A stretch of DNA of 64,000 nt from assembly GCA_003971905.1 (NCBI GenBank), contig RSEE01000001.1, positions 930,001-994,000 on the forward strand, read 5' to 3'. Below are positions 1,886 to 39,084 of this stretch, piece by piece. The translations under genes were made by a program, and so were the position numbers. The notes under the pieces are model-generated. The model was not told where the DNA came from. It saw only the letters and a list, made by a program, of their open reading frames with translations, and did not search any database. The stretch comes from Moniliella sp. 'wahieum' (lineage: Eukaryota). Position 1 is the first letter of the stretch; every line of letters begins with the position of its first letter.

Positions 1886-3821
1886 TTAGACAGCCCCTGC
1901 CAGGGACGAGGTGGGAGGCGTAGTGTACTGCCCCGCGTCAGGGGAAGCGTAGAGGTCCGGCACGGCCGGTACGGCAGGTACCGTGTCCGGCTGCCGCCAC
2001 AACGCTTGCAAGTTGGCCACCGAGGCAGATGGGGTGTGGACCGCCGAGGTGGAAGGCGTCATGTCGCCGAAGTAGCTGCTGCCAGCGGGGCCGGGACGCG
2101 AGTTGGCTGCGATGGCCTGGGCGGCGGCAGCGGCGGTGATCTCGGGGATGGGAGCAGACTTGTCACTAGGCACGAGGAAGCGGTGCAGATCGGTTTCGCC
2201 ATCGTCGTGATGCACCTTGCGTCCCAAGCCCAGCTTCTTTTGCCCGGGCACGTCAACCGTCAGGGGGCGCGCGACCGAGACAATGCGCTTGACACTCTTG
2301 TGCCACACGCAGCGCGCCAAGACGGGGACCGACGGGGACGGCTTGGCAGCTTGCACGCGCGACAGTTCGTAGATGGTCTGGGCCATCTTGAGCTTGGAGC
2401 ACTGCGCCACCTCCTCCGCTGTGGTCGGGGACGACCGGTGCCTGGGTGGACCAAGTCTTTGACGGCAATGGGCGGGAGGGAGATGGTACGGAACTTGACA
2501 TCGACAAACGCGCCCACATACACTTGACCGTTCCCGCCACACTGTTTGCAATCAATCGAACCGCGCGCATCGCACTTGAGGCAAGCATGAATCTTGCGGC
2601 CATTGCAATTGTCACATGTCTTGCGCTTGCGAATGCCCGTGCCGTCGCACCAGAAGCATTCGTCCGGCTCAGCGTCGCGGCAGAGCGGGCACATGGTCGT
2701 GCCCTTGGCGTCGCACGCCGAGCATCCTGCCATGGCTTCAAACTCGGGCAGACGGTAGGTCTTTTTGCTCTTGGCCTTGCCCGTGGCGATGTGCGAGCTG
2801 GCATCGAGGGGCAAGAGCCAGGCCGAAGGCAAAGCCGGCGCGCGCTCCACCGTCTCCACCAGCCCAGCGCGTTCGGCGGGCGGCTCGGGGCCCAAGGGCT
2901 TCCACACCGCCTCCCGCTTCTCCAAAACGACCACGCCACGCACCACACTCTGCTCCATCACACTCTCCACCTGCACCTGCAGCGCAGCAAAGCGGGCCTG
3001 CTCCTCCTCGGGAGTGATCGGCTTGAAACGCGCCCGGACCGCCTTGTCGACCGCGGGCGGGTTCTCGTGCGGCTTGCGCGTCTTGGCGCCCGGCTCAATG
3101 CGCTGGGTGAGGAAGCGGTGCTGCTTGACAATCCGGTCCCGCAACTCTTCCGACGAGGGCGGTACGGGTTCTTGGTTCGACACGAAAAATTGCACATCCG
3201 AAGCCGACAGGTTGGAGATGAGCTTGGCGTCGCTCCCGTCGCCCATGATGGACGAACCAAGCGGCACCTGCTCCGGACGCTTGCCTGCCACTCGCTCCTC
3301 CAGCGTTTCAATCACCTCGACATTCTCCGCCCCGGGCAACGCCTGGCGTGCCTCGCGCGTCTCGAGCGAGGGCGTAGACACGTTCCGGCTCGCATCGCTG
3401 CCACTGGCCGCGTTCGTGCCCGGAACAGCAAGGTCGGCGGAATACGCCGGGTACGGGTTGTACGACGTTGCTTCGTGGCCTGCGCGCAGGAACAGAGCGG
3501 AAGGGTCAGGCGGGGGAGGCGAACAGAGGATGAAGGGGAGAAACGAAAAGGACACGTACCATCGGGAGCGATGTGGGCGAGCATGGTGCGCAGGTTCTCG
3601 ATCTGCTGCTCGTCGGGGCCATCGGCGTGGGGCGCATCGGCAGCATCGGCGGCGTACGCATCGGCCCAGGGGCGGGGGTCGGCGGGCTGGACGAGGGGCT
3701 TGCGCTGCTGGTAGAAGGGGGTGGCGTGGTCGGGGGTGGGGGGGCCGCTGGGGTCGCTTTCGCTGGGCGCGCGGAAGTGGTTGCGGGGGCGCAGGGCGTC
3801 GGGGTGCGCGGAGGCTTGCAT
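1886..3821 (-). CDS. SSUH2-like protein with a DnaJ-type CxxCxGxG zinc-finger region and no J-domain
   Basis: ATG 3821 (MQASAHPD...). Intron 3480..3559 (GTACGT...CAG). Six CxxC units (CSACDAKG, CPLC, CFWCDGTG, CDNCNG, CLKCDARG, CKQCGGNG) followed by VYVGAFVDVKFR. Frameshift near 2420-2430 into ORF 1886..2551. Confidence 0.65.
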
Positions 3822-6800
3822 GCTGGCAGGGCAGAGAGGAGGCGGCGGGGGGGAGGAGAGGGCGCAGACGAAGCAGAGGCGTGGCTATATAATCCACCCC
3901 GTGCAGCCGCCACCTGGGGCCGCCGTTTTGGGTGGCAGCCACCTGCGCCCGTCTGCGTCTGTGTGCGTCTGTCTGGGGCCGCAGGGTGCACAGGTGGGGG
4001 CACAGCACACGCACGGCAGCACACAGGCGCCGTGCCCCAGCGCTGCCCTGCGATGCCGTCGGACGCCTGCATCCCTCGGTCCCTCGGTTCCTCGGCCGTC
4101 CCAGCAGTCTCCCCGCAGCTCCCCCGTGCGCCCAGCCGCAGCCCCCTTGCAATCGCCAGCTCCCGCCCGTCCACCTCTCTGATCGGGCTCCTTCCCAGTG
4201 TCGCATGAGGCATGGTTGGATGATGCATGACTTGTGACAGTGTGTCGCATGCCACATGTCATGTGGCACTCGCCATGCGTCACGCGTCACACTCACGATA
4301 CCAGTCACTTGACTAAAACTAGTCAGAACCCAAGCGCCACCTGGCTCTTCTCTCCCTTCAAACGGGGAGGGGTGACCAGGGCGACCGCTGAGCGGATGAA
4401 GGGTGCTGGGCAAGTTGACGGATGCACTGCTCGTTCATCATGCACCATGGCCGGATGCATGATGCGGCCGCGCCAAGAGGAGAGACAGTAAGCGCGTTAG
4501 CGCTAAAAAGCATTGCATAGCGATCGAGTGATCGATGAGCGATGGTCAATTCGATCATCGATCAATATTCAATGGCAGACACCGACCATTGATCGATGAT
4601 CACTTTTCGTCGCATGATGGGCAGGATGGATGATCGATGACGCATGGTGTATGATGTGCATGACGCATGATCGCTGATATCCGAGGATCGATGACGCAGT
4701 GGCCGGCGACCGGTGTCCGGTGAGTGAATCGGTGACGCTTCAAGCTTTTCCAGACGCTATCGACTGTGGAGCTATCCGCGCGTGCGCGTTGCCCACGTCG
4801 GGTGGGGCCCAGCGATACGACCGGATCCCGATTCTGCAATCAGAGCAAGAGGTCAGGTGATCGATAGGGATCGATTAAATTGCTGCTGAGTGAATGTAAA
4901 GACAAGCGAAGAGAAAGGGGGGGGGAAGGGAGTCGGATCTGAGAAGAGAGGGAAGACGAATAGCCGTGACAGCCGTGACTTCCAGATGAAAGAGCGTCAG
5001 AGCGTCAGCGCCGTCAGCTGCCAAACTTTTGCCCTGCTATTCTGTCGGATGGGAGTGATTGGGAACGCTAGTCCCCGGCTATGTTCTTGATACACTGCAC
5101 TGGTGTTCCAACACCGGTACCATTACAAGCTTCACCAGCGGCAGCTTCACCTTTTTCAAGCTTCATGCTTCAAGCTTCACAGCTTCACAGCTTCACAGCT
5201 TTCATCATCGCGCGACCATCCCCCGCCCTCTCCTCAGATCTCAGACCTCACTAGCTCACTGCCTATGGGCGGCGCCTTACAGCACCCTTTGGTATCGAGG
5301 AGCCGGCAACACTCGCCAGTCTGGGCGCCCAAGCCCACACGCCTCACAGGCCCGATCCACACAGTTCGCACGAATCAATCAAACTACTCAAATGTCTTTT
5401 GCTCAGCGCCAACGCCGGCCCGAGCGCCTCAGCTTCAATTCTGATCTCGATCTCACTGGTCGCGAGTCACCAGTCACACATCCCTGGCAACTCTCGGGAT
5501 GGCTATGGCGTCCCCGTCTATGGATGGCGTCCAAAACACCCCGAGACCATCAGAGCCGACACTGACACTGACGCACAACGCCACCCTCTCTCCGCCCACA
5601 GCCATCATGCTCTTGAAGCTAGGTGCCGTATAGATAGCAGCGTATGGCTGGGACGTTGTTCGCAATCATCTGATGATGATGATCAATTGGGCATGGAATA
5701 GCCGTGGGACCAGTGTGGCCCGCTCGCTTTTGCACATGTTCCGGTGGCAAGCTGTGGCTTAAACACTGGGTACTCAAGGATTCACGACCCTATTCCTATT
5801 CTACTGAGTGAATCCAGCACGCCCTTTGCAATGGCAGACCATCCGCAAGTATGGTGGATGGAGCGAGTACGCCCATGTGGGATGCAACGTGCGCGGGACA
5901 GGCGCAGATACATCTGGCCGTTCGCGCACCATCTGCAGATGGTAGTCCACATGTCCACGAAAAGCCTCAAAGCCCGCGACGATAGACGTTGAATGTGAGC
6001 ATGAGCGTGTGCCATGCGTCATGCATCATGCATCATGCGAGAGCTGGTATCATGCATGGTGCATGACGCATGATACGTGCGAACCATAATGCAGTTTGAA
6101 CGTACTTTAACGTTTAACATTGTGTTTTGTCATTTGGCCGTGCGCCACAGCCGGCGCCACAATCCCGATTGGTCGCATGCCCTCCCAGATCCCATGCCCC
6201 AGCCCTGGCCCCACGGGGCGGCGGGGTAAGCTGGGGGAGTTGCGCAGTTTACCGTTTGCGCGTACGGAGTTCCGAAAGAGCACCAAGTGTGGGTGGAAAG
6301 TACTATAATCGGATTCAGTTCGCAATGGTGGAGCGCGTGCTTTTACATGTTCGTAGCATGCTGCCGAGGAGAGACCCCGAGGACACCTCTTATGCACCCT
6401 TTTCCGCACGGCGTTATGCAATGAAGCTGGCCACCTTTATAACTAGAAGCGTTGGAGTCCTGAAAGCTTGAAGCCTTTAGATCTGGGAGTTTGAGAGCTT
6501 GAACTGTGGTGCCCCCATCGACTCAATCATGCATCACGCATTCTACCTTTATCACGGGAACATCGATCATCGATCAGCGTATCAACGTTCAACATCACTG
6601 GTCAGTGACGCGTGACGCGTGACGGGTGTCAGTCACTAGTCACAATGTGAATGCGTGTTTGTAAAGCTTGAAGGTGCGTTGAAAGAGAGCATACGATCGG
6701 TGATCGGTGATCTGGGTGGCTTTGAATTAAACTTACCGCCGGGATAGGCTGTGGAGAGGCTTGCAAGTCGCCTAGGTCGCCTAGTTCGCCACACTATTGG

Positions 6801-8586: not shown

Positions 8587-10124
8587 TTACTCGTCATCGG
8601 CGGTAAGCCAGAAAGAACTTGCGAGCAAACAGTCGGTGGGCATCTCGACCGCAAGGTGGAAAACGGTAGCAATGACGATGGCCAGCGGTACACACGCAAA
8701 GAACTGGGCTGCGACGATCGCACCGGACCCAGTAGCGTGGCCGGCGACCGACATGTGCTGCCAGATGAGCGGGCCGAGCGATTGGAAAATGGCGCCTTCG
8801 ACAAGGAAGAGGGAGTAGGAGATCCGGCCGAGGAAGAGAAGGACTGGGTTGTTGGCAAAGATAGCACGAGCCGATGCGAACATTTCCAGCAAGATCATCG
8901 CGTTGGCAGCGACAAACCAGTCGTCAATGCGCGGGTAGCCCGTTGCCGAGGGGTCAAAGCCAGTCCAGAGCAAGCCCGTTTGCGAGTTGTCGTGAGCCAC
9001 CCATTCATTCCGGTGGTCGGGGGCCGCGTCGCCAAAGACGTACTTCAGTACCACGCCCACGCACAACCAAAACGCAGGGATGGTCCAAACGGGGACGAGG
9101 TTGAAGAGCTTCTTGGTCCCCAGGGAGCCCAGGTCGTACACCACCACCGCTTCGGCCAAGAAGAGGCCAGTGAGAGAGTAGTAGGCAAAGTTGCCCAGCC
9201 ACCAAGACCAGAGCCAAAGGATCGCACCAAAGATGAACTTGGGATAGCCACGAACGTAAGGGAGCATGATGGCAAATGCGTACACCGAGTACGATTGAAT
9301 AAAGTTGCGCGTCACGGTCCAGAGCACACCGCGGGGCGGGAAGAAGTCCATGGGCACTGTGTTGATGGCGTTCGAGTTGTCAAAGACATAGGCAGTGAGC
9401 GAGTCAAGATAGTTCAGCACGCTCGTCCACTTGGCAGCAGGGGCGACAAAGGTGTTGTTGAGCGCATACGAGAAGGGCGCCGCTGCACCAAATGCGTTTT
9501 GCGAGGCCATGATGGTCACGATCGCCAGGGCAATGGCCAGTGGAAAGAAGACACGGATGGGCGGCGGAAAGCGGCGCCGGCGATGGAGGTGTTGGTGCGG
9601 CGCTCGATAAACGTGTGCACACCGACACGAGCGGCAATGAGAAAGAAGAAGGTGGACTGCAGGCTGCCATCCCACAACAGAGGCTGGAAGACCTTGCGGA
9701 CCGTGCTCTGCCACTTGGGAGAGTGCTCCAGGAAGGGCGCAGGACGAACATTGAACTCGTCCGTGTCGGTTGCGATGGCTGCAGGGGGGGGCGTCAGTAC
9801 TTCGTCGACAAAGGAGGGGGCAAGAGACAGGGACAAGAGACACGTACCTGGTGCCAAAAGACGGAAAAAGGCCCAGAGACAGACCTCAAACGCGATCAGG
9901 CCGCGGAGCGCCTGGATGTAAGGCACACGTTCCGAGTAGGAACGCCCATAATCGTGAGCAGGGTCGTTGGTAAATGCAAAGGGGGTGACGCCCGCCAGCT
10001 CGGCGCTGGTCTCGAGTTTCTTGTACCCCATCTCAGAGATAGGGCCAGCCATGGGCTCGACAGGCTGGGCAGGCACCTGAGGCTGAGCCTCCGACTTCTC
10101 CCGCAAGTTGGAGAGAAAGGGCAT
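8587..10124 (-). CDS. Acyltransferase-3 (OafA/YrhL)-like polytopic membrane protein with degenerate motifs
   Basis: ATG 10124 (MPFLSNLREK). RVPYIQALRGL resembles LDGLRG. Also FFFLIAARV, RRPIR and LGRISYSLFL, with many hydrophobic helices. In-frame intron 9779..9847 (GTACGT/CTGAC/CAG). One frameshift near 9560. Stop at 8587. Confidence 0.75.
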
Positions 10125-12279
10125 AGCGATGGTGGTGGTGGGAGCGAAGGGACAAGGGGTGGTGGGAGGAGGTTGGGGCTGGGGTGGGCTGGCACAGTTG
10201 CGGGTCGCCGGTTGCCGCTCGTGGCGCCTGGGCAGGCTGTGTGGAGTACGTAGGCGGGCGCGGCGCCCTAGTCTGAAATCGGAGACCTGAATATTGAATT
10301 GGCAGGCGCCGTTTCGAAGCACCAACCACACTGGCGCCAGCGCAGCCGCAGGGGCGCTGGGCCGGCGCCGCCTGAAACCAATGATCGATGAGTAGGTGTG
10401 GGTACCGGTGATCTAGAACCGGTGACCTGATGGTGCAGTGACGACGGCTAGTGACCGGTGACCAAGTGACCTGTGATGCCTGTGATTGGTGATTGGTGAC
10501 CAATTCAATGGCTTGCGAGCATGATGCTCGATGCATGGTGATCGATGTGACCTGTGACAGGTGACCGGTGACCGCTGTTCACAGATCGATCATCGATCAG
10601 CAGGGAAGTGATTTGACTTGTAATTAAAGGGATTAGTTTTTTACGGCTTCGTTCGATCGGGATCGAGTGATCGATGATGGATGGTCGGGAAATTGGCAGC
10701 CTCGGCTAGTCCTCCGTACTTGTGCTTGCATAGTTGTTGCCTGTTGTTGCCTAACAAAGGTCTAAGGCCTCCTGAGGACACTCAGTGCACGATTCTTGGT
10801 TGATGTCCCCCACATTTAGAACAGGTGGTTTGCGACCCCTTCGGAAGCGGTACAACATGTTTTTGTACGTTCGTCGACGACACTCGTTCACGTGCGCACG
10901 ACGGCAACCGCATGTTTCCCCAGCCACACCCTCAATTTAGTCATCGATCGGTAATCAATACGTTGGCCATCCACTATCCGCCGCAGGGCGAAGGCCTAAG
11001 ACGTGATTAAGATTGTTCAAATCTTATCGCACCAACACAGCCATCAAACGCCCTGTTCCGCACGGACATTGAACGTTAGCGTTGAACGACGTTGAACCTT
11101 TAGTTCTCCTCCATATGGTCGCTGCTTTCTTTGGCCTGGCATGGCCTCCCTCACGGCCCCGGTGCTGACATGCTACCGTGTGCACGCACCGCGAGCGAGC
11201 ACGCTGCAGATGGTTTACAGGGGAGTGGTAAATGTGGACTCGTATTGCTTAGCGGTTAGCCCCATGGGGAACACTGTCATTCGCATTGCGAAGACAAAGA
11301 AAAGTCGTCCGAATGGTTGATGGTCGATGATTGATGCACTCTTCGATGGTGCCGCACAAAAGGGAGGCTGGTTGGCGCTCTCTGTTGTGGCACAGGTGTG
11401 TGCCATGCAGTCCCAGTCCCGTGGACAGATGGACGGACGGCGTGACGCACCACACGAGAGATGGCTTCAGGGGGCTTACGCTCTAAGATGGTATAGAACA
11501 GTGCAGTAGCAGTGCTTGGCACCTTAGGCTTGAAAGTCTAAGGCGTAACGCGTAAGGCGTACGGCTAGGATGGAATATGAAAACTGTTTGAGATTTAAGG
11601 CAAAACTCCCCGGTGAGCGCGCGGCTGAGCCAGGCTGAGCCTCAGCTGAGCGCAGACGCATGAGATATGATCGATGATATCTCGGAGTGTACCAGGGGGA
11701 GGGCGACCAGGGGGACACCCGGGAGAATGGGAAGGAAGAGAAGGGGGTGGTCGCTGATCGCTGATCGCTGATCGATGAAGCGCTTGAGGGGGGCATTGGG
11801 GTGGCTTAAAGCTTGGCGTGATATGTGACGCGTGACGCAATTAGATCGATTATCGATTACATGCAAGAAGATTTGTGGCGCCTGCCGGTGTGCGCGGCGC
11901 CAGGCAGGTATCATGCACTCATGCACTCATGCATCGCAATCGGTACTCCGTATTCAGAACGCAGATCATCGATCGCCAATGCGTGCACCCTGGATTCGGA
12001 GGCCGCACGCGTGACCAGGTGGGATTGTGACTGGTCGGCTGGGCGTTGGTGTTGCATGCATGATGTGTGGAGCATGATGCATGACAGGCCAGCACCCTGG
12101 TCGCACTGAGCTGCACGCCACCAGACTGCGCCCATGCCCACCTGCGGGTGCTCGCCCTCCGCCAGCAAACCACCTATCGCGCTTTGCTCTTCAAAACCCA
12201 GGTGCTGCTCATCTCTCCCACCACTACCCCACCACCATCTCCACCGCCTCTCTCCGGCCTTCCTGGGACTGCCGCAACG

Positions 12280-13816
12280 ATGGGAATTGGCCAGCAACTT
12301 GACCGCGCGTCCAACTGGATCATCGGGTGTATGTCCTTTCTTCCTCCTCCCCCCCCTTCGGACTGAGAAGAGCTTGAAGTGCTGACGAGTGTGGCTGCTG
12401 CTTGCAGGGACACCCATTTCGTTGATGGTCACCTATGCCGTCTTCAGTGTCTTTTTCTACATTCTCATCCCCCCAGTGCTCAACTCGGCGCTGTGGTACA
12501 CCTACATGGGCATTCAGACTTTTGTCGTCCTTACTGTCCTGAGCGAGGCCATCTCTTCCATTCGACCCAATGTCGAATCCCGCCGTGCCCGTCGCAAGGT
12601 TGCCAAGGTCGGCTTTCCCGATCTCGACGGGGAAAAGAATGAGCACAAGTGCCCCAAGATTGATTTGGTGCTCGTTGCGTACCTGCCCAACGAGCAGTAC
12701 ATCATCAAGCGCCAGATCCGCTACGCAATGACCCAGATCGAGTATCCTGCCTCGCGCCTCACCATCAATGTTGTCTACAACATCCCAAGCCCATTGAGCC
12801 CCTGGAGACGGAGCTGAAAGAAATGACGAGTCAGTACGGTCACCTTAAGGTCATTTCCGTCCCCCTCCACCTCCAAGGCCGACAACATCAACTACTTCCT
12901 CTCTCTTCCCTCGGACTCGGAGATCATTGCCATCTTGACACGGACCACTACCCTTCCCGCTATGCCCTCAAGTGGGTTGCCCGCGCATTCAACAAGGGCG
13001 ATGTGGACATTATTCAAGGCCGGTGCTGCATCTACAACTACTCGGAAACCTGGATCACCCGCTTGATCGCGGCCGAGTTTGACATGATTTACGGTGTGTT
13101 TCACCCAGGGCGTGCTCGCTCGCACCGCTTTGGCCTGTTTGGTGGGTCGAATGGGTACTGGAATGCGTCGTTGCTTCGTTCGCTGGGAATGCAAAAGCAC
13201 ATGCTTACGGAGGACATTGACTCGACGCTGCGTGCGATCGTGTCGGGCGCGCGGATCAAGTACATGCTAGAGGTGCAATCGTACGAGACCGCTCCGGAGA
13301 CGGCCATGGCGCTGCTCAAGCAACGTATGCGCTGGACCCAAGGTTGGTTCCAAGTCACGCTCCGCCACGCCATTCCCTCGTTGCAATACGGTGCGTACGG
13401 TACAATTGACCCATCGGCGATGAGCACCAAAATCATCTCCCGTGCCGGTCTTTTTCCTACTGGTCTTCCGCGAGGCCTTCTTCTACTTCATCTCCCAACT
13501 GTCGGCACTGCTCTTGGCCAGTTTTGCGGTGCACCCACCGCATCGCTGGCACGAACTCTACCAATCGTTTGAGGGGTTCAAGATCACCGTCTGGCTCTTT
13601 GTCCTGAATGCGATTTGCATCATGACCGCCACGGGCATCACCGCCCGCAACCGGAGTGAGTTCACCTCTATCTGGGCTATCATGGCGTTTGGCATTCTCT
13701 CCCCTACCTACTACACCATTGTCACCTTCATGTCGATCACATGCCACTTCCGCGAGTTGGTGCAATACTCCAACTGGAACCCTACCTCACGGTCGGCGCC
13801 TAAGAAGACGACGTGA
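12280..13816 (+). CDS. Processive GT2 glycosyltransferase (D,D,D,QxxRW type polysaccharide synthase)
   Basis: ATG 12280 (MGIGQQLDRASNWIIG). Intron 12329..12407 (GTATGT/CTGAC/CAG). Two N-terminal TM helices, then VAYLPNE, SKADNINY, DTDHYP (DxD), FGGSNGYW, LTEDID and QRMRW, then C-terminal TM helices. About four 1-bp frameshifts (~12785, ~12865, ~12935, ~13455). Confidence 0.88.
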
Positions 13817-16800
13817 GCTTTCGTTTGTACTCTTTTCTCCCTTGTCCCTGCCTCCGGTCTCTCTTGGTCACCGGTCCTCGACCTATCTGAAGAGCCAGCC
13901 ACGGCCGATTTCCCCTGTTGCCTCACACGGTACATTGCCCCTTTTCTGCTCCGTTTTGCACGCCTTTCGTTTCCCTTCACCCACCCTGTCTCAATGAACC
14001 CGCACCTGCTCTGTATATCTATATGCCTTTTTCGTTTCTGGTTTCGTTTTGCCTTAGTTTTCTGCTCCCAGCTCGGCCGGCGTAATTCTCTGCACTTTCT
14101 CTGGCCCTTCCCCTTGTCGCAATGCCAATATCGCTTGCGCTATTGCGGATGCCGATTTTGATGGGCCAGGACGAAGCGCTCCGCTTCTTAGGGATCTCAG
14201 TTCCTCGGCTCCGCCGAAGTACTCACTCTGGGCTCTCACCGATCTCATCTCAGATCTCACAGCAGCTATGATATCGATCATCGTCAACATCCGCCACTAC
14301 CGGCCCTACCTCGCTATAGCCACGAGAGTCACTAGTCACTAACCACTAGAGGCACCTAAAAGTCACTGTGACACAGTCACCGCAGTCCTCACTCTCTTTG
14401 TTCGTCCATCGCTGCAGCGATGGTGCTCCGACCCAAGGCCAAGCGTTAATCTTAGTGGTTGCCCCTCCCCGCCCCCCCTGAGTGAAAATAAGGCCCACAC
14501 AAAAGTGCATAAACTGCCGTCTTGTTATCGGATGGGCGCCGGGACGTGCGTTCGCATGTTGGCACATGTGACTAGGGACCTCCGCCCACCCCCCGGTTTA
14601 AATCGAGGGCGGGCGTAGTGGAAGGGGCCAACGAGTGTCACTTGGTAGGTGGCGCGTGACGCGTGACGCGTGACGCAGCAATCCGGTTACTGTCACCCTT
14701 GCTTGTGTCAGACAGCGCGTGACGCGTGAGGAGCTCGTTGCAGGGTATGGGGGTACTACCATCACAGTCATGCCTCCCCATATCACATGGTACACCCCCT
14801 CTTCTGCCGGCACCCATGTGCGCAGTAAGCGATAGGGCACGCCGGGGCCGGAAGGCGCCCTCCAGGTCCGGATCTCCGGGATACGGGCGATAGAGCCTTG
14901 CGGCGAGCCTGCCGCAATGCGGTGGTACGCCTGGGTCTGGTACGTCTGGCCCAAGGCTGCACGGCTGTGCAATCATATACTCTTTTTGGTAAAATATTCA
15001 AAGCACGAAACGATGATTCATCTCCTTGAGATCCGAGGGATCTGACACCGTCTGCTCATTTCGTGCACTCTATGGAAGCCATTTCGCCTCGTTAGCATAG
15101 CAAGTTCAATCTTCTACCGCCACTTCAATGCTCCGTCGTCAAGCCTCAGCCCATCGGCACGCTCTTACTCCCCCTGAGATGTCCAGTACACGTTCTCGCC
15201 CACCGTCTCTTTAATCTCAATTCTCTTTCATGGCGCCACACCGTCGGTCCGGATCACTTCTCAGTTCATTCAACGTGGGGCTAGACGATCTTAAGCTTAT
15301 TAACGTCAAAGAAGCATCTCATTGATGACATGTGCGCGTAAAATAAGCGCTACCCACCAACTACACGCACATGGTTACAAGACAGTGGGTAAATCTCATA
15401 CAACAACAACATTAGATCCTAAAAGAGGGCCCTAGTACCTCTCCTACTGTGCATGTGGGAATATATGAGTGAGAGCGCTCACATGGCGCTCACAGGAGGC
15501 TCTAGGTGTCACACAGTCGGAGCTAAGACGAGGGAGACCAGAGTCGAGACTAGGCAGTAATAGTTCGTGGGGGAGGAGCAAGAGCAGAGGACATGATCCG
15601 AATAAGCGGGAAAACGGGGAAGGAGCGAGACACTAGAAATTGGAAATCGGAGCGAGATCAGCCAAACGATGGCACTAGCGCCCCGCACGTTTGGGGAGTC
15701 ATGCCCCCCCGTTCCTTACTTGTTACAAATGAGACAGCGAAAATGTGTACGATGCTTCAGCGGTGGATCTTCCAATCAGTACTGAGTCAACGATCGACCG
15801 GCACAACACTACTTCACATATATACCATTGCTCGGCACGTTCAAGCTTCAAGCTCTCCGTCTCTCGGCATGATGCGGCAGCACCTTTATACTCATCTCTG
15901 AGATCTGAGCCCATATTGCTTCGCTCTTGGAACAATAGAGGACCGAACCGTACCCCCGCGAGACTAGATCAAAGAGAGGTTAGAATCGAGCGCCGTTGAT
16001 TATACTCTTGGCCGGAATAGGCCCTTTGACCCATATTTGAGCGCGTTGAGCTTCAAGCGTCTTCAGAGCTTTACGCCACTGTTGATACTTCGGCAGCCGT
16101 TCAACGTTCACTAGTCACTAGGATCACTTGAGCGCGTTGAGAACTGTTTGCAATGGCCGTATGTCTGTGAGAGGACCTTGGGTCGCTCTACATATCCGAA
16201 AAGGCTCACGTGGATATATACCTCAGTACAGTCAGAGATTGAGTAGCGAAACCCCCACTTTTTATGATGAACTCATCTGTACCCACCGCCACACAGTACT
16301 CCGCATATTAGTATGCAAGATCCACACAGAAAGTTCATTCAATCGAACGGTAGCAACTCGTCGAATAGGGAGGATGTGTTGGTACCCGAGCACGAGATGC
16401 ATGTCGCGGTCATATCCGCTATGCATCTTAGAACATCCCATATCAGCTCCGCGGCACCTATATCATGTGCCGAGACTCCTGCAATGATGAGGTGCATATA
16501 CATGTGATAATGGGGCCTGATGGGGGATGTGGAGCCAAGTGTGATGGTGCCAAATGGATCCCATCTCTGTTGCCCCGTAGTCTTTGGCCAACAAAACTCT
16601 CGTTGCGGAGACTGGTTGTGGAGAGTCACAATAACTCACACCAGGTTGTGATCACTCTGACGGATATATGATGCGGCCAACTGTGACATGTTACACGCGC
16701 AAGTTTGTGTATAATCATTGTGACGTTGGTACTCCTTGCAGAGATCCCAGACGTGAGTACAGAGTGCGCGCGAAGCATGAGGGTCTATACAGTGGTGCGT

Positions 16801-18441
16801 CATGTGTGCGCGCTGGGCAAGTAGGCACATGTCGTGTGAACAGGTTTTTAGTAGTGTACAGCCTGTTGACGTAGTTGTACCGTTCTGTGAGATCGGAGAT
16901 GCAGATCCTCTGTATCTGCCTGTTTGTTGTTGTAACATATGGGCGCGCACATGAGAGTTCAACGTTCACGGTTCACGCGCACGCATCATGCCACATGTGA
17001 TGCATGTGAGCGCCGAGGTTGAGAGATCTCAGATGGCAGGCCGGTGACTAGAGTGACTGAGTTGCAAGGAGAAAGGGTGTGGGGATTGGAACGATTGTTG
17101 GGCGTTCAGCTCAAGGGTAAACGTTAAAAGTTGAACGTTAATGAGACCGCCGATCGCGTCTCTGTACAGCATCCGAGCTTCGAGCTGTGAGGTTGAGCGT
17201 TGAGTGTTGAGTAGTGTTGAGTGCGATGTTTTGAGACCCCGAGAGGGTAGGTGTACAAATCGTTAAACGTCAAATGTCGAGAGCTGCCCGGTGGGCAGCA
17301 ATTGTATAGTAAGGCTTTTCGGGAGCCGAGGTAATCGGTTTGTCGCGGGGGCGTCTCCTCCTGTCTCCTCTCGGTGTTGCTTTTGATCGGCTGTGCTACG
17401 CAAAAGGGTTGGCCCGACAATGCGTCCGCCGTCTCCAACGCCAGAGGCACCCCAACCACACACAACTCGTTGGAATCCCGAGTCGGCACTTCTCAGGGTT
17501 TCGTTGCCGCCGCGCAGGGAGGACTTTGTTGTGGCTCTGTACTATGGCAGCAGCTCCGCTCCCGGGGTAATTTGATGTGCTTGCCGGTGCGCCACATGAG
17601 GAGTGGGATATGTGCATCCTAATGTGCGCTTATATATGCGCTACGCCGCTGGCGGTGCAGAATCCCTCTCTGGCACCGGCACGGCCTGCGGCAGCCAAGG
17701 CGCAGCAGAGCGCAGCCCGCGGTTGGTACCTGCGTCTGCAGCGGTGCAGAGGCGCAAGCAAGCGCCCAACACCAACACTGTGGGCCTGCGGAGGCTGCCG
17801 TGGCCCCTCCACCGGCCACCCACGCCGCACTGCAGCTGCCAGGGCGGGCGCTGGGCGTAGCGCGTTGGGCTGGGCACTGCCGCTGTGCCCGCCTGCAGCA
17901 GAGCGGCGGGTGGTGCGTGGGGGCCGACTTGCGAACACCCCGTACAGCCAGCGACAGAGAGGCGCCGTGCGCCAATTTGATGCGCTCGCTCTCTGCGGCT
18001 CAGCGCACTAGTCACTAGTCACTAGCACTGCTCAGCGCTCACCGGTCACCGGCCACCGCAAGTCCTCTTTCCAGTCACCCCTTCGATGCATAGTCAGATC
18101 TCAGACACGGGGGCAGCACCCCAGTTCCTAGGCCCTTTTGTTATACGTTCACCGCTTCTTGCCTGGAGAGCTTGGTGAACGAAGGGTGCCGGTGAGGCCG
18201 AGGCGCACAGGACACGCTCAGTGTGGCAATCCATGCCCACTATTTCATCTCATCCATCCATCGCCCCAACCCTCCCTCCACCTTCCGCCCTCCACCCTCC
18301 TCCCTCGTCTTCCCTCTTCGTCACTCTTCTTCTTTCCTTTGCTGCCCGGCGCAGCCGCTGCTCGTTGCCCTTCCCTTCCTTTTTCTCTGTTGCCCCATCC
18401 CTCCACCAGCGTTCCGCCCCTTCCCCCCCGCCTCCCCTGCC

Positions 18442-21400
18442 ATGGCCCACTCCCTTTGGGCGCTGGCCGCCTTGGCCATGCTGGTGGGTGCACCTGCCAT
18501 CCACGCTGCCTGTGAGTGTGGCTACCGTGATCCCTCAACTACCTCTCTCTGGACCGACGCTGTTATTACCTACTTTAACGAGTCTGCCGCTGCCACCGAC
18601 ATTGTCTTTGAGCCGGCGCAGTATGCAGACCGCTATGGCCGCGACCAGCCCGGCGAGGCCGGCACGGGTCAAGAAGCATGGATTGGAAGCAACCGCATCA
18701 ACGAATGGGAGGACGACTTCTCCGCCACCTGGCGCTCCGCTGTGGTCGCCAACAACACCCATCTTGGTGCGAACCACTCGGGTCTTCTCATGGATGTCAC
18801 TCCGGCCGACATCAAAAACCGCATCAGCTGGGGCAGCCAGCTCCAGACCCGCCGCCGTGACATGCAGTACGGCTCTTTCCGCACCATGCTCAACCCTCCC
18901 CCTGGGAGATACATGGCTGGGACCAACCTTGATGTAGAGGTGGCGTGGAACCAATCCGAGTTGATTCGCACGGCTTTCTTCAATACCAACCAACCAGGCC
19001 AAGGCAATGTTCAAGTCTCTTACTCGTCCAGCTCCGAGTCTGTTACCCCCTTCCTCTACAACCAGTCCACCATGGATCGGGGCGGCATCAATGGGCTCGA
19101 GTACCGCATGGACTGGCTGCCCACATCTGTTTCGTTCACCAACACGGGCGCCAACACCACCTCCAATGCCAAGATTTGGTCGGGCAAGCATGCGCACCCC
19201 CCGAGTCGTGGAGCTCCTTTCTCGTACAAGCACTGGTCCAACGGTTCCCCCACTGCCTCCCAGGGCCCCCGATCGCGAGCACCGTTACAGCTCAAATCAT
19301 CTATGCTCGTCTCTTTTTCAACTCATCCCGTCCTGAACGCTTGGAAGCGTTCAACTCGGCTTGCGCGGCTAGTTCGGCTTCTGCTGTGTGCTCCACCGAC
19401 GACCTTACCCTACGTGATAGCACACCCTTTGACCTGGCCGCGACTCTCAAGCCGATTATCCCGCATCACAAGCGTCACGTCCCCGTATACTCAATCTACG
19501 GTGCGGCCATCTCGGGCGGAATCTTTGTCGTGCTTACGATCCATGCGTCCCTTCGCCGGATCAGGAACACGCGGCGCAAGCGCGCTGCATTTTACGAGCA
19601 GTACAACAAGGAGATTCACGATCAGCCCGATCCCCTCCTGGAGGCCGGGCCACATTCCAGTACCAGTATGTCATCGACAGCATACTCCGAGGTGGACAAG
19701 CAAGTATTTGACGAGGCAATGACCAAATGGGACGATCCAACCATCTTGCTGGCTGAGGACGAGGATGACTCCGAGTCGATCGCTTCGGAAGACATGGATG
19801 ATGAGAATGAAAAAGCAGCCGAGGCTTGGGGGTACAGTGGCGTTGAGAATGGCTCGGTCTACTCGATGCAGACCAATACCTCGGGATACGTTCTGCCCCA
19901 TATCCAACTCTCGCGCCAGGATCTCAACAAGTCAGGCATGCTCACTCCTGCCTACCCTTCCTCTGGTGGATCCACCCCTGCAGGCGTGGCGACATCGTAC
20001 AGTCCCAGGAGCGCTCAAACCCCTCCCGTTTCACACTTCCGCGCCCGCTCCATCCCGTCGATCCGGGGAGGAGGGGTGTATGGGTCTACGACGGCGGCCA
20101 CGTCTCTTGCCTCGTTTGGGGGTGAGGACGGTCTGGGTCAACCGCCATCGCTGCCGCATGTGGCGCCGACGGTGATCTTGGAAGATGGTTCACAAGCACC
20201 AGTGGCTTGGGTCACACCTATTGCCGATTGGGCCCCTGCACCCAAGGGGGACCGGAGGTCGATGGCACATGGGCTTCTTGCCAACCCACCCACAGCCGTC
20301 GCGGCTGAGGATCAGCAGGCACTGGAAGCGTACGAGCCCACGTCCATGTGGGGAAGGATCAAGTCGGCTCTGTTTGTGTCCAAGGGTCAAGGCAGGGTGA
20401 CGGCGTCGGGCGCGGCGCGGGTCGAGTATCTCGACGGTCTCCGTGGGTTTGCATGTTTCCTTGTGTCCCTCCATCACTTTTGCCTCATTTACGAATACGG
20501 TTTCACGACCCAGCCTACCGGGTCGGGAGAGCACTACAAGTTTGAGTACTGGATCTATAAGATTTTGGGTCCTATCCTTTGCAACGGTGGGCTGAACGTG
20601 GGCATCTTCTTTGTCCTCTCGGCCCGCGTGGTGTGCAACCGGTACCTATATCGCGGCAACTTGCAGCATCTTGCTCAGCTCGTGCTGACCCGTGTTCCGC
20701 GTCTGAGTGTAACGATCACTGCTGCAATCCTGCTCAACTACTTCCTCATTGAAGTGGTACGTTGAGTTCCTCCGTTAATTTGCTCAAGAAGGGACTGACA
20801 CTAACCAACCTTCCGTGGTACAGCAAGCGTTCTACTGGACCTCTCGTCTGGCCTCTCGCACCTTTTCGATTTGGTCGTACTACCAAGATTTCCAACACGT
20901 TGGGCGTGTTCATTGATTACTGGCTCAGTCTGTGGTGGATGCAGCCCCCGTCAATTACACCTATTGTTACGCATTATGCAACGGGTATCCTATGGACCGT
21001 ACCTGTGATCGTCCAGTGCACATGGACTTGCGCCCTCTGTGCCCTGATCGCGCGTGAGATCAAGAGTCCAATCAAGCGGTACTTGTTCTACTCGGCTTGC
21101 ATCCTGCTTACCTGGTGGGCCAATCGGTTTGACTACTTCTTCTTGGCCGGTCTGCTCCTTGCCGATCTAGACGTGCGCTTCCAATACCGCCAGAAGTTTG
21201 GCATTGCTGGTGCGCTCCTGGCTTGGTGTTTTCTTCCTTGGCGCTGTGCTCACTTGGCTCGACTATGCGAAAGTCATCGACGTGCAGAAAGAATGGGGCA
21301 TCCATCCCAATTTTACAAGCGGTACACCCAACAAATGGGTTGGATCGACTCAGGCTTGGTACTTGCCCAAGCTCACCGATGGCATCTTTGTGATCTCCTT

Positions 21401-21717
21401 TTTCTTGCTCTGCGATCTATGCACACCCGTGCGCGTTTTTCCAACTGCGTTTCTGGAACGTGTTTGGTCGCAACGCATTCTCCCTCTACCTCTTGCACGG
21501 TGTCGTCTTCTGGTCGGTAGGCGCGGCGGCCAGTCTCAAGATGTTGGCGGCCGGCATTCCATATTGGGCTGCGATGATTCTCAACTTTCTTCTTTGCTAC
21601 GCCATGCTCCTGGTCGTCTGCGAGCTGTTTACACGCACGTTTGACCGCTGGGGCACCACTCTCGCCCGCTCCTTTTTCCGCGCCGTGTCAGGTGGACTGG
21701 GCCGGCGCCCCACCTAG
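18442..21717 (+). CDS. Fusion protein: signal peptide, GH16-like (ConA/beta-jelly-roll) ectodomain, TM helix, Ser/Pro-rich linker, acyltransferase-3 domain
   Basis: MAHSLWALAALAMLVGAPAIHA followed by ACECGY. RRRDMQYGSFRT, EYRMDWLP, HWSNG and SQGPP are typical of fungal GH16-like proteins. TM YSIYGAAISGGIFVVLTIHA. AT3 motifs RVEYLDGLRGFACFLVSLHH, FFVLS, GILWTVPV and FGRNAFSLYLLHG. Intron 20757..20823. Frameshifts near 19268, 20890, 21230 and 21440. Confidence 0.82.
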
Positions 21718-29234: not shown

Positions 29235-31143
29235 GCTTTCTTCTTTGCGGGAAAGCCGTACACCCAGGATGAAGACCAATCTTCCTTCCCACGCGACGTC
29301 CCTCGGCCACCTCCGTCTATCTCCTACACCCCCTGCAAGTCCTGGTTTTGACTTGGGAAGCCTTTTCTTCCTCTGCTTCCCCAGCTGCTTCTCGTTTCCT
29401 TCATACGGCCCGACCAAGATCAAGTTTTCAGGATATATATGTGCCCATCCCCCCTTTGCCACCCCACTTTCCTCTGGATCCTTGTTGCCACCTCTTTCTC
29501 CTCCATTCCTGCACCTCGCATCGCTAGCACTGGCAATTTTCAATCGTCATGGGTTCCCACGTTTCTCCATGCGCGGTATATGTTCCGTCTCTCGTCACTT
29601 CATTGCGCCAAGGCGAGCCGAATGACTTGGGCCCACATGTGGACCTTTGCTGAGAGACCGACAGCAGGGGAACAGGATGCCGTGCCCAGTCTCCCTGGCG
29701 TACGGGTGGAGAGGGACAGCGAGGTACGGGCCAAGTAACGTCGGTGGCTCTCGGGACGGAGGGCAGGAAGGGGGGGGGGCAGAGTTGGTGATGGCAGAGA
29801 CGACAGGGCATCGCATCTACTTGCGTATGCAGAGCACACCAACTTGATGGGATTGCCTGCCCCACTGCATCCACACATTAACGTCATTAACCCCAGCCCC
29901 TGCCGCCATTGCACTCCCAAAAGCGCGGAAACAGATGTGCAGGAATGGAATGGCCTTACGTCAGCGCCTACCACGACGTATTCCGCCCGACTGCCATGCG
30001 ATCCCAGATGAAAAATCGGGAGGCTGCAGTAGCCGCTGCCCCTGCGCCTCAGCCTAAGGTGAGTACTAACTGAGTACGGCTGCGGCAGCTGTGCCCAGGC
30101 GCACGCCTGCGCACGCCCGAGCGCTGCATGCAGCCAGCAGCAGGGTGCAGCGCGCCGACACTGGCCAGACGCCTGCCGGGGAGCGGCGTTGCCGCAGCCC
30201 GAGCTGCCGGAGCCCAGCGCCGCACTAGGCCGCAGCCGGCATCCAATACGAATCACCGAGTCTTGATGACCAGTGATTGGTGACCGGTGAGTGAAAGGGT
30301 GCCAGTAGGGGCCAGCGGCAAGGGAGCGCAAGGGATGGTGGATCCGGCCGGCAGACGCGTAACAAGCCGCAGGAAGGCACGGCAGCAGTGTGCAGCCAGG
30401 GGACAGAGGCAGGGTGCGGACCCCGAGCAGGCGCAACGGGGTGCGGAGGCGCAGGCACGAGGCGGTGTGGCTGCGCTGCGCTGGATGCGCTGGCAGCGGG
30501 CAGGCGGGCGGGAGGCACGGGGGCAGCCAGGGCCGGCGAGTGAAAAAGAGGCCCGAGGATCCAAGCAGCGGCGGGCGGATGGCTGCGGTGGGCTGCGCCA
30601 GCTGTGCTCGGGGCAGCCTGCGCGCTGCTCGCTTCTCTGCTGCACCACACACCGCGTCGCCCGGCGTCTCTGCGTCTCTGCGTGCGTCCTGCCTGCGTCG
30701 TCCGCCTGCCTCGTGCCGCCCGCCTTCTGCCCGCAGCGCCCGTCAGAGCCCAGCAGCACAGGCCTGCACAAGCCCCTCGGCCTCAGCGCTCCCTGCCGCC
30801 TGCCTCCGCCTCCCGCCTCTGCCGCGCCGCCCATCCGCTCCGCCAGCACCTCGCCTGCGCCCTCCTGCCGCCGCCGCAGCCAGCACGCGCAAGCAGCCCG
30901 ACGCCTGACCCGGCTGACCCCTGACCCGCTCGCGCCTGTACGCGTCGCCTGCCGCTTGCCCCCACCTCACCCGTCACGACGCCTGCGCTCCCGCCGTCGC
31001 GACCGCCGCCCTGACCAGCAGCAGCCCATCCGCCCTCCCCTCCCGCGTACGTCCGTGTCTTCCGTCGCTGTCTGCCGCCCTCGGCGCCGCGCATGCTGGT
31101 ACTGACGCGCCTCCTCCTGCGCGCATGCGTGTCTGCTCCCAGC

Positions 31144-32493
31144 ATGGATCCCCCCGACGCCTTTGGCTTTGGCGCGCCCCCTCGGCCGCCGGCGCGCACC
31201 CCGGCCCCTTCCCCGGCTACCCCAGCCTCGCCTATCCGCCCCACCACCCCGGCCACCACCCGCAGCACCCGCATCACCAGCAGCACCCCCACCCGCACCA
31301 CCCGCACCATCCCCACCACCCGCCCAGCGCCTACTCCGCCTCCCCCGGCCCCGCCTTTGCCCCGCCCACCAACAGCATGTACCTCCCCGGCCCCGCCGAC
31401 CCCTACCAGCAGCCCCCGCCTCAGGGGTACGCCACCATGCCCACCTACTCGGCCCAACCGTCTTACTTCTCTAATGTCATGCCCTCCCAGCTTCCGCCAC
31501 CGTCAGCCGAGCCGCTTCTTTCCACGCCAGCCACCAGCCACGGCCACGGCCACCATGGCCACCCACACGGCCATCCGCATCTCCCGCCCTCGCGGCAAGC
31601 GCGGATGCCCGATCCGCGTATGCCCAAGGACGAGTACTCGCGCGTGGCCAAGGAAGACTACGAGCCGGAAACCGAACCGGGGCCGAACCTGTACCCGACG
31701 CGGACCCCCCCGCTGCTTCCAGGGGGTCGGTCGCGCAGGAAGCGCGGCGCAGCTGCCGACCCGCCCAAGAAGCCGATGCGTGCGCATGTCAAGCCGCCCA
31801 AGCAGGCGCCTTCGGCGTGGCAGCTGTTCTTTACCCAAGAATTGGCCTTGCAGCGCAGTGCCAACCCACAAGGTCGTCTGAACGTGGCCCAGGTCTCCAA
31901 GGGGGCTGGGGAGAAGTACAATGCTGCCGGCGTCCGAGAAGGCCAAGTTTCAAGCCGAGAGTTTGCGTCTCAAGGGCGAATGGGAGGAAGCGATGCGAAA
32001 GTGGACCGCATCCTTGTCCCCCGAGGACATCAAGTTGGAGAATGCGTTCCGCACTCAACAGCGCAAGGAAGGCAAATCGCGTAAAGCCAACTTGAAGGAT
32101 CCGCATGCACCCAAAAAGCCATTGTCGGCTTACTTTTTGTTCCTTCGCGCCATTCGCGCCTCGCCCGAGCTCACACGCAGCGTGTTTGACGGTGCGGTCG
32201 GCACCACGAAACAATCCATGCTAGCTGCCACACGGTGGCGTGAATTGAGCGAGAAGGAGAAGTTGCCTTTCATCACCAAGGCGGAGCAGGACAAGGTGCG
32301 GTACGAACAGAGCCACAAAGTGTACGAGGCGGCCTTGGCAAACGGCGTGCCCCACGCTTCCGCGGCGGCTGAAGCCAGGCAGGCCGGCTTGGCCCGCAGA
32401 CCAAATGGCCAAAACGAGCCCGGTGGTGGCGCAACTGATCCAGGAGGGCTTGCCCCGAGGCATTTCGTTCGACCCAACTTCAAAGGAGTTTGA
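31144..32493 (+). CDS. Tandem HMG-box protein with His/Pro-rich N-terminus
   Basis: PPKQAPSAWQLFF (box 1) and KDPHAPKKPLSAYFLF...RWRELSEKEKLPFITKAEQDKVRYE (box 2). Likely start MDPPDAFG at 31144 after a putative 5' intron ending at 31142. Frameshifts near 31180 and 31920. Confidence 0.85.

Positions 32494-39051: not shown

Positions 39052-39084
<33 letters not shown>

Follow-up and report, generated by a model that had tools for sequence, protein, structure and literature searches.

Three adjacent genes in Moniliella sp. 'wahieum' form a candidate synthase-plus-acylase locus for a fungal β-glycan

A 64,000-nucleotide stretch of the genome of Moniliella sp. 'wahieum' (GenBank assembly GCA_003971905.1, contig RSEE01000001.1, positions 930,001 to 994,000; hereafter, the window) contains, between positions 8587 and 21717, three genes that may act together in the synthesis of a modified glycan. 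Gene 1 is predicted to encode a multipass membrane protein related to the AT3 acyltransferases, gene 2 a membrane-embedded glycosyltransferase of family 2 (GT2), and gene 3 a fusion of an ectodomain with the fold of glycoside hydrolase family 16 (GH16) to an AT3 domain (Table 1). Stop-to-stop open reading frames (ORFs) are fragmented across 8.5 to 21.8 kb, and the three genes were placed by tblastn with full-length homologs. Together with Pfam and Rfam searches, this placement left nothing else recognizable inside the segment. Genes 1 and 2 are divergent and head to head, on the minus and plus strands, respectively, with a separation of 2.26 kb, and 4.6 kb lie between gene 2 and gene 3. The closest named relatives of the window proteins are from Tilletia, Violaceomyces, Thecaphora, and Jaminaea, all members of the Ustilaginomycotina.

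An earlier description of this DNA, made from the letters alone (the sequence-only reading), had reported three consecutive genes with no other recognizable gene between them: an AT3-like gene head to head with a GT2 gene carrying DxD, TED, and QRMRW motifs and flanking transmembrane helices, followed by a gene for a signal-peptide-bearing GH16-like protein fused to an AT3 domain. These observations were confirmed by the analyses below, the signal peptide by eye. The domain search of the window proteins bore out the assignments in part: Pfam recognized the GT2 and the AT3 domain of gene 3, whereas the AT3 character of gene 1 and the GH16 fold were seen only by profile or structure comparison. 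The interpretation attached to these observations, a dedicated pathway for an acylated glycan, is partly supported.

Table 1. Features of the three-gene segment and, in the last four rows, neighboring genes of the window that are split between reading frames
Feature	Positions	Strand	Basis
Gene 1, AT3-like multipass membrane protein, ~512 amino acids	8587..10124	-	tblastn with P0121, hhalign, BLASTP, ESM Atlas
Divergent intergenic region, 2.26 kb	10125..12385	.	No Pfam, tandem repeat, or Rfam match
Gene 2, membrane-embedded synthase-type GT2, ~470 amino acids	~12386..13816	+	Pfam, tblastn with P0001, alignment, model
4.6-kb stretch without recognizable gene, GT2 to gene 3	13817..18441	.	Pfam on 23 ORFs, Rfam
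Gene 3, GH16-fold/AT3 fusion	18442..21717	+	tblastn with P0127 and P0130, full length
Gene 3, signal peptide MAHSLWALAALAMLVGAPAIHAA	18442..18510	+	Translation; signal character judged by eye
Gene 3, GH16-fold (β-jelly-roll) ectodomain with degenerate catalytic residues	18511..19328	+	Model, Foldseek, VIA-align, profile
Gene 3, single membrane anchor VYSIYGAAISGGIFVVLTIHA	19485..19547	+	Hydropathy peak at equivalent site in homologs
Gene 3, poorly conserved linker, ~290 amino acids	19548..20417	+	No consensus among 69 aligned homologs
Gene 3, AT3 (Acyl_transf_3) domain; stop codon 21715-21717	20418..21717	+	PF01757, motif conservation
Gene 3, 67-nucleotide intron within the AT3 domain	20757..20823	+	GTACGT ... 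ACTAAC ... CAG; homolog comparison
DEAD-box helicase, split into overlapping ORFs in different frames	38397-39651		Profile 2-104, then 95-165
emp24, split into overlapping ORFs in different frames	40779-41590		Profile 2-82, then 84-181
LepA/GUF1, split into overlapping ORFs in different frames	52820-55473		GTP_EFTU 3-71, then 66-185
Arp2/3 p16, split into overlapping ORFs in different frames	46227-47553		Profile 1-72, then 68-133

The product of gene 2 is 82 to 87% identical to its homolog P0001 (461 amino acids) when the latter is aligned to the window by tblastn. In Pfam searches, the fragment encoded in the window matched PF13632 (E = 5.1e-19) and PF13641 (E = 1e-08), and P0001 matched both of these families as well as PF00535. 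The window encodes the motifs DTD (12937-12945), QGRCC (13015-13029), TED (13207-13215), and QRMRW (13321-13335). All four motifs are invariant or nearly so in an alignment of 45 GT2 homologs, in which D168, D170, D260, Q296, and W300 do not vary and conservation is at least 90% at T258, E259, and R299. A further motif, WNPTSR, is found toward the C terminus (13775-13792); the residues of this WNPTxR motif (W448, N449, T451, and R453) are likewise at least 90% conserved in the 45 homologs, and it may be closer to the gating-loop motif of the WGTR type known from hyaluronan and chitin synthases than to the FxVTxK motif of BcsA. At the 5' end of the gene, an in-frame stop codon occurs at 12383-12385, though the family consensus reaches further in the N-terminal direction. 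Shortly before the first conserved residues, in the region 12300-12440, the sequence ..gctgac..ttgcag may mark a 3' splice site, and a run of eight C residues at about 12347-12354 could hide an insertion or deletion (indel). The divergent intergenic region may hold a short 5' exon of the GT2 gene, and it probably holds a promoter shared by genes 1 and 2.

Database searches with the GT2 yielded 568 relatives at E ≤0.001 among 2922 candidates, including UMAG_04353 of Ustilago maydis and many proteins of Dothideomycetes. A second group of paralogs in the Ustilaginaceae contains UMAG_01902. When compared with NCBIfam models, the GT2 scored 66.5 bits with PgaC_IcaA, 65.4 bits with CelA, and 29.6 bits with NodC. 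The sole solved structure found by sequence was that of BcsA, with an E value of 6e-08 for one protein and 4.1e-17 for the family profile. The AlphaFold model of P0001 has a mean predicted local distance difference test (pLDDT) score of 90.3 and a predicted template modeling (pTM) score of 0.89. It contains two long N-terminal helices and several long C-terminal ones around a GT-A domain, the last helix ending at about residue 442 of 461, and the transmembrane and interface helices pack on the GT-A domain as they do in solved synthases. Foldseek placed hyaluronan synthases and BcsA at the top (E = 5e-15 to 1e-14, probability 1.00), followed by chitin synthases and plant CesA. In VIA-align comparisons with the same model, PcManGT was the closest match (Z 29.3, 334 of 346 residues aligned), followed by CvHAS (Z 26.7, 375 residues aligned), XlHAS1 (Z 25.3), BcsA (Z 24.3), CesA1 (Z 21.9), CslF6 (Z 18.5), and chitin synthases (Z about 17). 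From its motifs and model, the GT2 is predicted to be a membrane-embedded enzyme of the cellulose-synthase-like class and an equivalog of none of the characterized members. A metagenome scan with the GT2 recovered three contigs of about 2 kb without flanking genes, one of which (L001) lacks a poly-A tail.

Gene 3 matches P0127 (1134 amino acids) and P0130 (1177 amino acids) along its whole length in tblastn. Its product begins with MAHSLWALAALAMLVGAPAIHA, which resembles a signal peptide as judged by eye, and continues with the GH16-fold ectodomain, a membrane anchor, a long linker, and the AT3 domain. In the model and alignment, a low-confidence N-terminal helix precedes an invariant CxCGY motif in the ectodomain, and a conserved FFNSS/Cys-rich stalk follows the region of GH16-fold strands. 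The anchor was placed by a hydropathy scan, used for this purpose alone since it is crude and undercounts helices; equivalent peaks occur in P0127 (residues 352 to 370) and P0138 (residues 356 to 374). The topology suggested by the signal peptide would have the ectodomain facing outward; the linker, presumably disordered, would then lie in the cytosol, where the AT3 domain would also begin. Bacterial AT3 domains start with the N terminus inside, in agreement with this arrangement.

In the window protein itself, the ectodomain escaped detection by Pfam: the first 277 residues of the gene 3 product, searched alone, had no Pfam match. The GH16 family PF00722 was not found in the window protein and scored 17.5 bits in P0127, against a cutoff of 22, while 39 of 55 relatives passed the cutoff. 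In structure comparisons, the model of the ectodomain (pLDDT 86, pTM 0.83) matched GH16 enzymes throughout. Foldseek returned lichenases first (E = 6.5e-8), and VIA-align superposed the model on lichenase 3i4i with a Z score of 17.5, aligning 188 of 215 residues at a root mean square deviation of 2.9 Å. Laminarinases (Z about 16), Crh5 (Z 15.3), and Rv0315 (4wzf; Z 15.3) also aligned, and among the matches listed, all 50 were of the GH16 type (glucanases, laminarinases, agarases, carrageenases, Crh5, and Rv0315). A profile of the ectodomain family matched Crf1 in the PDB (E = 3.8e-8).

The same comparisons indicated that the catalytic residues of GH16 enzymes are missing. In the profile alignment, the family strand "ieldlln" aligns with VEVDIEV of the Fibrobacter lichenase. 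The sequence LIRTAFFN (18961-18984) occupies the place of the ExDxE motif in the window protein, with R, A, and F instead of the catalytic E, D, and E. Among 54 aligned members, the nucleophile column holds Glu in 11, the aspartate column holds Asp in 22, and neither the acid/base column nor the column after it holds Glu in any (0/54 each). A close relative, P0133, also has R, A, and F at these positions, so the loss of these residues is not sequencing noise. NLDVE (ectodomain residues 162 to 166) was considered as a degenerate catalytic motif and was set aside, as the motif falls on the following strand in the profile alignment. Because the catalytic motif is lost, we interpret the ectodomain as most likely a nonhydrolytic, lectin-like module rather than a hydrolase. 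The sequence-only reading had likened the locus to the layout of synthase, glycoside hydrolase, and modifier known from exopolysaccharide loci, and this comparison fails at the hydrolase, since none of the three catalytic residues is kept in the GH16-like domain.

The AT3 domain of gene 3, by comparison, retains its motifs. AT3 proteins share an absolutely conserved R-X10-H motif in the first transmembrane helix (TMH1) as well as an RXXR motif, as summarized in an excerpt of PMC9833829. In gene 3, the R-X10-H motif is intact (LRGFACFLVSLHH, within 20418-20480), RXXR is present as TRVPRL (within 20685-20705), and LYLLHG (21478-21501) keeps the C-terminal LLHG histidine. D719, R722, H733, R803/R804/R807, and H1063 are invariant in 11 AT3-fusion homologs. 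The window fragments matched PF01757 with 32.4 bits (profile positions 2 to 95; cutoff 31) and 19.8 bits (positions 98 to 224), and the orthologs matched with 43 to 60 bits over positions 2 to 322 of 326. A sequence search with gene 3 found no solved AT3 chain, and NCBIfam gave no match for the fusion protein. Removal of the intron in this domain joins ...NYFLIEV (ending at 20756) to QAFYW (starting at 20824), as in homologs (FLIE..AFYW in P0129). The relative P0133 (806 amino acids) stops near the point that corresponds to the end of the first exon of gene 3 (about 770 residues), which would fit a gene call that had halted at this same intron.

With the N-terminal part of the fusion as query, an exhaustive search yielded 119 cluster representatives at E ≤0.001; 71 of them reached ≤1e-10 and 14 reached ≤1e-30. 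A Pfam scan covered 55 of the 75 relatives selected from these representatives; GH16 was found in 45 (E ≤0.01; 39 above the Pfam cutoff), AT3 in 26, both in 20, and neither in 4. Several of the short GH16-only relatives may be gene models cut at an intron, P0133 apparently among them. The ESM Atlas neighbors of P0127 fall into clusters of proteins of about 1000 to 1300 amino acids, in which GH16 is found in 60 to 68% of members and AT3 in 21%. Judged by these counts, the GH16-fold/AT3 fusion architecture is widespread. Database labels for proteins of this locus type go no further than "Acyltransferase 3 domain-containing," "glycoside hydrolase family 16 protein," or "related to glycosyl transferase, group 2."

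Gene 1, which runs from an ATG at 10122-10124 to a stop codon at 8587-8589 on the minus strand, aligned with P0121 (515 amino acids) in two tblastn pieces of 77% and 85% identity. It had no Pfam or NCBIfam match, and PF01757 was not found at E values up to 1 in the window fragments, P0121, or P0124. One relative, from Tilletia controversa, is labeled "Acyltransferase 3 domain-containing" in UniRef. More sensitive comparisons connected gene 1 with the AT3 domain of gene 3: hhalign aligned the gene 1 family to that domain over 412 columns with 99.8% probability (E = 6e-28), BLASTP gave 23% identity over 195 residues (E = 5e-10), and 29 of 30 ESM Atlas neighbors of gene 1 are AT3 clusters. By these comparisons, gene 1 is a full-length paralog of the fusion's AT3 domain.

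The description of gene 1 as AT3-like thus stands as a statement of homology, but by its motifs it may not be a second acylase. Ala is the last residue of LRGLIAFEVCLWA (9864-9911), so that the R-X10-H histidine is absent; P0121 has Gly at this position, and P0124 has Ser. The Asp of DxxR is replaced by Gln or Glu in the gene 1 family. The TMH1 arginine and RXXR are retained. According to an excerpt of PMC12423673, GWT1 is an acyltransferase even though neither this Asp nor the catalytic histidine is present in it, and loss of the histidine in gene 1 need therefore not mean loss of activity. Gene 1 may encode either a mechanistically divergent second acyltransferase or a noncatalytic partner.

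The sequence-only reading had proposed synteny of the orthologs as a check on its interpretation. For the GT2 and the fusion, the indirect evidence is largely positive, although four pairs are unlinked. Outside the window, linkage was read from locus tags, accession order, and equal contig sizes rather than from DNA. In Thecaphora frezii, the two genes are adjacent (GT2, ACQY0O_004961/KAN0062766.1; fusion, ACQY0O_004960/KAN0062765.1). In T. controversa, a GT2 paralog (P0043: CAD6887642, CAD6898327, and CAD6902283) and a fusion (P0137: CAD6887646, CAD6898336, and CAD6902289) differ by 4, 9, and 6 in their accessions, and the gene 1 homolog P0124 (CAD6898337) comes directly after fusion CAD6898336. 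Equal contig sizes suggest that GT2 and fusion share a contig in Violaceomyces palustris (67,690) and in the ascomycete Polychaeton citri (98,458), as well as on a JGI contig of 9,437 bases and an NCBI contig (564,076). With the window included, the tally from tags, accessions, and contig sizes is seven linked or same-contig cases versus four unlinked pairs.

A midpoint-rooted maximum-likelihood tree of 45 GT2s separated an ascomycete from a basidiomycete clade with 100/100 support. Since linked cases occur in both of these deepest clades, the pairing of GT2 and fusion looks old, and it appears to have been kept often but not always. The hit lists of the two families are also similar in taxonomic range, covering Ustilaginomycotina, Dothideomycetes, and lichen fungi. 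Each family has at least two paralogs in several Ustilaginomycotina (for the GT2, P0003 and P0043 in Tilletia and UMAG_04353 and UMAG_01902 in U. maydis), and in Tilletia only one GT2/fusion pair appears to be linked. This pattern suggests duplicated GT2/fusion modules with different fates in the Ustilaginomycotina.

Taken together, these results lead us, with moderate confidence, to view the locus as a conserved fungal module of a synthase and an acylase for an undescribed β-glycan. The GT2 would be a plasma membrane enzyme of the CesA/HAS type that probably polymerizes a β-linked glycan from a uridine diphosphate (UDP)-sugar on the cytosolic face and extrudes it by way of its own membrane-spanning region. 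The AT3 domain of gene 3 would take an acyl group from acyl coenzyme A (acyl-CoA) in the cytosol and deliver it to the outer face, as bacterial AT3 proteins are described to do. The GH16-fold ectodomain, which lacks the catalytic residues, may bind the nascent β-glycan as the acceptor; by position, though not by chemistry, it would then correspond to the SGNH domain of OafA/OafB. Gene 1 would provide a lineage-restricted AT3 paralog, either a divergent second acylase or a noncatalytic partner. The net product would be an O-acylated β-glycan that is secreted or displayed at the cell surface. More tentatively, and short of an even chance in our estimate, an old two-gene module, a GT2 plus a new class of transmembrane acyltransferase with a dead GH16 domain for acceptor binding, may be common to the Ustilaginomycotina, Dothideomycetes, and lichen-forming ascomycetes and make an undescribed O-acylated surface β-glycan, with synthesis and modification at the plasma membrane as in the bacterial systems for poly-N-acetylglucosamine (PNAG) or cellulose, with the gene 1 family as a histidine-less AT3 partner recruited in one basidiomycete lineage.

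Several observations weigh against a synthase-plus-acylase module. The GT2 falls far below the equivalog cutoffs of the NCBIfam models that it matches (66.5 versus 422.3 bits for PgaC_IcaA, 65.4 versus 699.1 for CelA, and 29.6 versus 550 for NodC). Its top VIA-align match, PcManGT, is an archaeal membrane mannosyltransferase, and the modeled fold alone is no proof of a polymerase. Gene 1 has just 4 relatives at E ≤0.001 in the database search, the second invariant histidine of the AT3 domain (H1063 of the fusion) is Glu or Ser in its family, and position is what would place it in the pathway, here and beside the fusion gene in Tilletia. The linkage evidence from other genomes is indirect, and by the same locus tags GT2 and fusion are unlinked in Sporisorium graminicola (EX895_002310 versus EX895_003986), Tilletia horrida (OC834_006902 and OC834_005601 versus OC834_007340), Tilletia indica (CF319_g5527 versus g1806), and Tilletia walkeri (CF327_g3439 and g1843 versus g3576).

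These unlinked pairs in Tilletia and Sporisorium are what could be expected if the three genes were independent, the GT2 making some glycan or glycoconjugate, the AT3 proteins acylating another wall polymer or a lipid, and their adjacency being inherited synteny. AT3 enzymes such as OafB and OatA act, as far as is known, without binding a synthase (see also an excerpt of PMC12423673). We nevertheless regard independence as unlikely: linked pairs turn up repeatedly, in basidiomycetes as well as in an ascomycete and in both of the deepest GT2 clades, a contig as short as 9,437 bases appears to carry both GT2 and fusion, and the two families are similar in taxonomic range.

Somewhat less probable still is that the GT2 makes a short oligosaccharide or the head group of a glycolipid, like NodC or PcManGT, which the AT3 proteins then decorate to give a signal or a surfactant. 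Such a product would fit the similarity of the GT2 to PcManGT, a minimal membrane GT2, the presence of NodC among the NCBIfam matches, and the NCBI label "N-acetylglucosaminyltransferase-like" on some ascomycete GT2 homologs; moreover, NodX and NolL, which are AT3 members, O-acetylate Nod factors. The NodC score, however, is below those of PgaC_IcaA and CelA, the GT2 sequence profile finds only BcsA in the PDB, and the locus has no gene for lipid synthesis, a P450, or a transporter. A lectin-like β-glucanase fold is also better suited to a polymeric acceptor. That the ectodomain is instead an active transglycosylase or hydrolase with noncanonical residues, cross-linking or trimming the GT2 product as Crh enzymes do, seems very improbable despite its similarity to Crh5 and Crf1 and the report that the Schizosaccharomyces pombe GH16 protein Ghs2 works with a glucan synthase (PMC13612389, in excerpt), given the R, A, and F at its catalytic positions, the scarcity or absence of Glu in the catalytic columns of the family, and the existence of a solved pseudo-glucanase of the same fold (4wzf).

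A synthase-plus-acylase module for a β-glycan would have its nearest functional counterpart in the staphylococcal icaADBC and Escherichia coli pgaABCD loci for PNAG, which likewise combine a small D,D,D,QxxRW membrane GT2 with an AT3 protein thought to O-acylate the exported polymer; IcaC, the AT3 protein beside the GT2 IcaA, is the precedent, as described in an excerpt of PMC12423673. PgaC_IcaA is also the best NCBIfam model for the GT2. The locus differs from these systems in being eukaryotic and in lacking IcaD/PgaD and a deacetylase, and its GT2 scores far under the model's cutoff. IcaC is a stand-alone AT3 protein (PMC12423673, in the part cited), whereas in gene 3 the AT3 domain is preceded by a long linker and an ectodomain of the GH16 fold.

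In architecture, gene 3 is closer to the bacterial AT3-SGNH fusions OafA/OafB and OatA, in which an AT3 domain with R-X10-H and RXXR is joined to an extracytoplasmic domain that handles the carbohydrate acceptor (excerpts of PMC9833829 and PMC12423673). The extra domain of gene 3 is N-terminal, behind a signal peptide and with its own anchor, unlike that of these fusions, and it is a GH16 β-jelly-roll without catalytic residues rather than an SGNH esterase or transferase. As the ectodomain is neither of the SGNH type nor catalytic, the last transfer step would have to fall to the AT3 domain or to a different protein. The animal NRF-AT3 proteins, such as Drop-dead of Drosophila and NRF-6 of Caenorhabditis elegans, are a further architectural analog, with an N-terminal NRF domain in the place of the GH16 fold. 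To our knowledge, no link to a glycan synthase is known for Drop-dead or NRF-6. The extra domains of AT3 proteins named in the cited portion of the transmembrane acyltransferase (TmAT) paper are SGNH, NRF, and HGSNAT type, not GH16 (PMC12423673).

The Bgs3-Ghs2 pair of S. pombe offers a eukaryotic comparison: there, a glycan synthase has a GH16-domain protein anchored in the membrane as its partner, and the GH16 domain is proposed to be located at the polymer exit. According to the same partial source (PMC13612389), the synthase in that case is a β-1,3-glucan synthase rather than a GT2, Ghs2 is proposed to be catalytically active in branching, and an AT3 domain is not mentioned for Ghs2 in the portion cited. 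Rv0315 of Mycobacterium tuberculosis (4wzf, titled "pseudo β-1,3-glucanase") shares the GH16 fold of the ectodomain and is a soluble bacterial protein without an acyltransferase fusion.

Among fungal GT2s, ZtGT2/Cps1 and AfTFT1 have been proposed or shown to make nonchitin wall or surface polymers (PMC5653360 and 10.64898/2026.09.17.752320, both in excerpt). Identity of the GT2 with ZtGT2/Cps1 was rejected on the statement, in an excerpt of PMC5653360, that U. maydis has no similar protein, whereas the GT2 family described here includes UMAG_04353 and UMAG_01902. Identity with the mixed-linkage glucan synthase AfTFT1 is improbable, judged by size alone: pore residues of AfTFT1 are numbered up to 551 in the excerpt of 10.64898/2026.09.17.752320, whereas members of the present family mostly have about 430 to 530 amino acids and the last helix of P0001 ends near residue 442 of 461.

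In the library searched, no paper was found on UMAG_04353, UMAG_01902, UMAG_04352, or UMAG_04354, and the papers listed included none on a GH16/AT3 fusion and none on a fungal AT3 protein in the context of the wall. Few polymer pathways other than those of chitin and glucan synthases are known in fungi, in which walls and matrices are targets for drugs and crop protection. If our interpretation is correct, plant-associated and lichen fungi would have a synthase-dependent, bacterial-style pathway for an acylated glycan, and the transmembrane acyltransferase superfamily would gain a new domain architecture, dead GH16 plus AT3, in which a glycoside hydrolase fold is reused as an acceptor-binding module. 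This could be tested in tractable fungi, as U. maydis has the GT2 orthologs UMAG_04353 and UMAG_01902 and its close relative S. graminicola has the fusion.

All three genes are interrupted by frame breaks in the window: one in gene 1 (about 9553-9572), four in gene 2 (near 12782, 12858, 12940, and 13450), and four in gene 3 (near 19266, 20898, 21215, and 21450). The changes are indels of 1 or 2 bases; in the GT2, for instance, an Asn codon is lost ahead of STSK, and a TTT is short of one T. Relatives at 79 to 85% identity have intact reading frames. Four conserved genes elsewhere in the window are split in the same manner, with Pfam profile coordinates continuous across each break (Table 1). 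Because these neighbors show the same kind of frame breaks, we rejected the possibility that genes 1 to 3 are pseudogenes and read the breaks as uncorrected assembly noise. Indel errors appear to extend across the whole window, at about 1.5 per coding kilobase in genes 1 to 3. An invertase-like GH32 gene (49999-52193, plus strand) is also split between ORFs; its N-domain profile is matched at positions 14 to 64 and then 241 to 297, with a gap between.

The gene-free stretches of 2.3 kb (10125-12385) and 4.6 kb (13817-18441) are unusually long. Among 30 ORFs of at least 80 amino acids in 10.1 to 12.4 kb and 13.8 to 18.4 kb, 23 of them in 13817-18441, there was no Pfam match better than E = 0.027, and an Rfam search of both stretches found no family. 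No tandem repeat was found in 10125-12385, and 13817-18441 has a single short repeat of 14 nucleotides at 18274-18306. Either stretch could conceal a gene that indels have disrupted or whose product has no known domain.

Outside the trio, the genes recognized by Pfam are unrelated in kind and include those for a SET-domain protein, an α/β hydrolase, an EF-hand protein, and an HMG-box protein, among others. The regions 2263-4434 (minus strand) and 29600-32500 contain long ORFs that overlap on both strands, with guanine-plus-cytosine (GC) contents of 66% and 71%, and these ORFs had no Pfam match. The HMG-box ORF, at 31882-32490, comes after the GC-rich stretch at 29600-32500.

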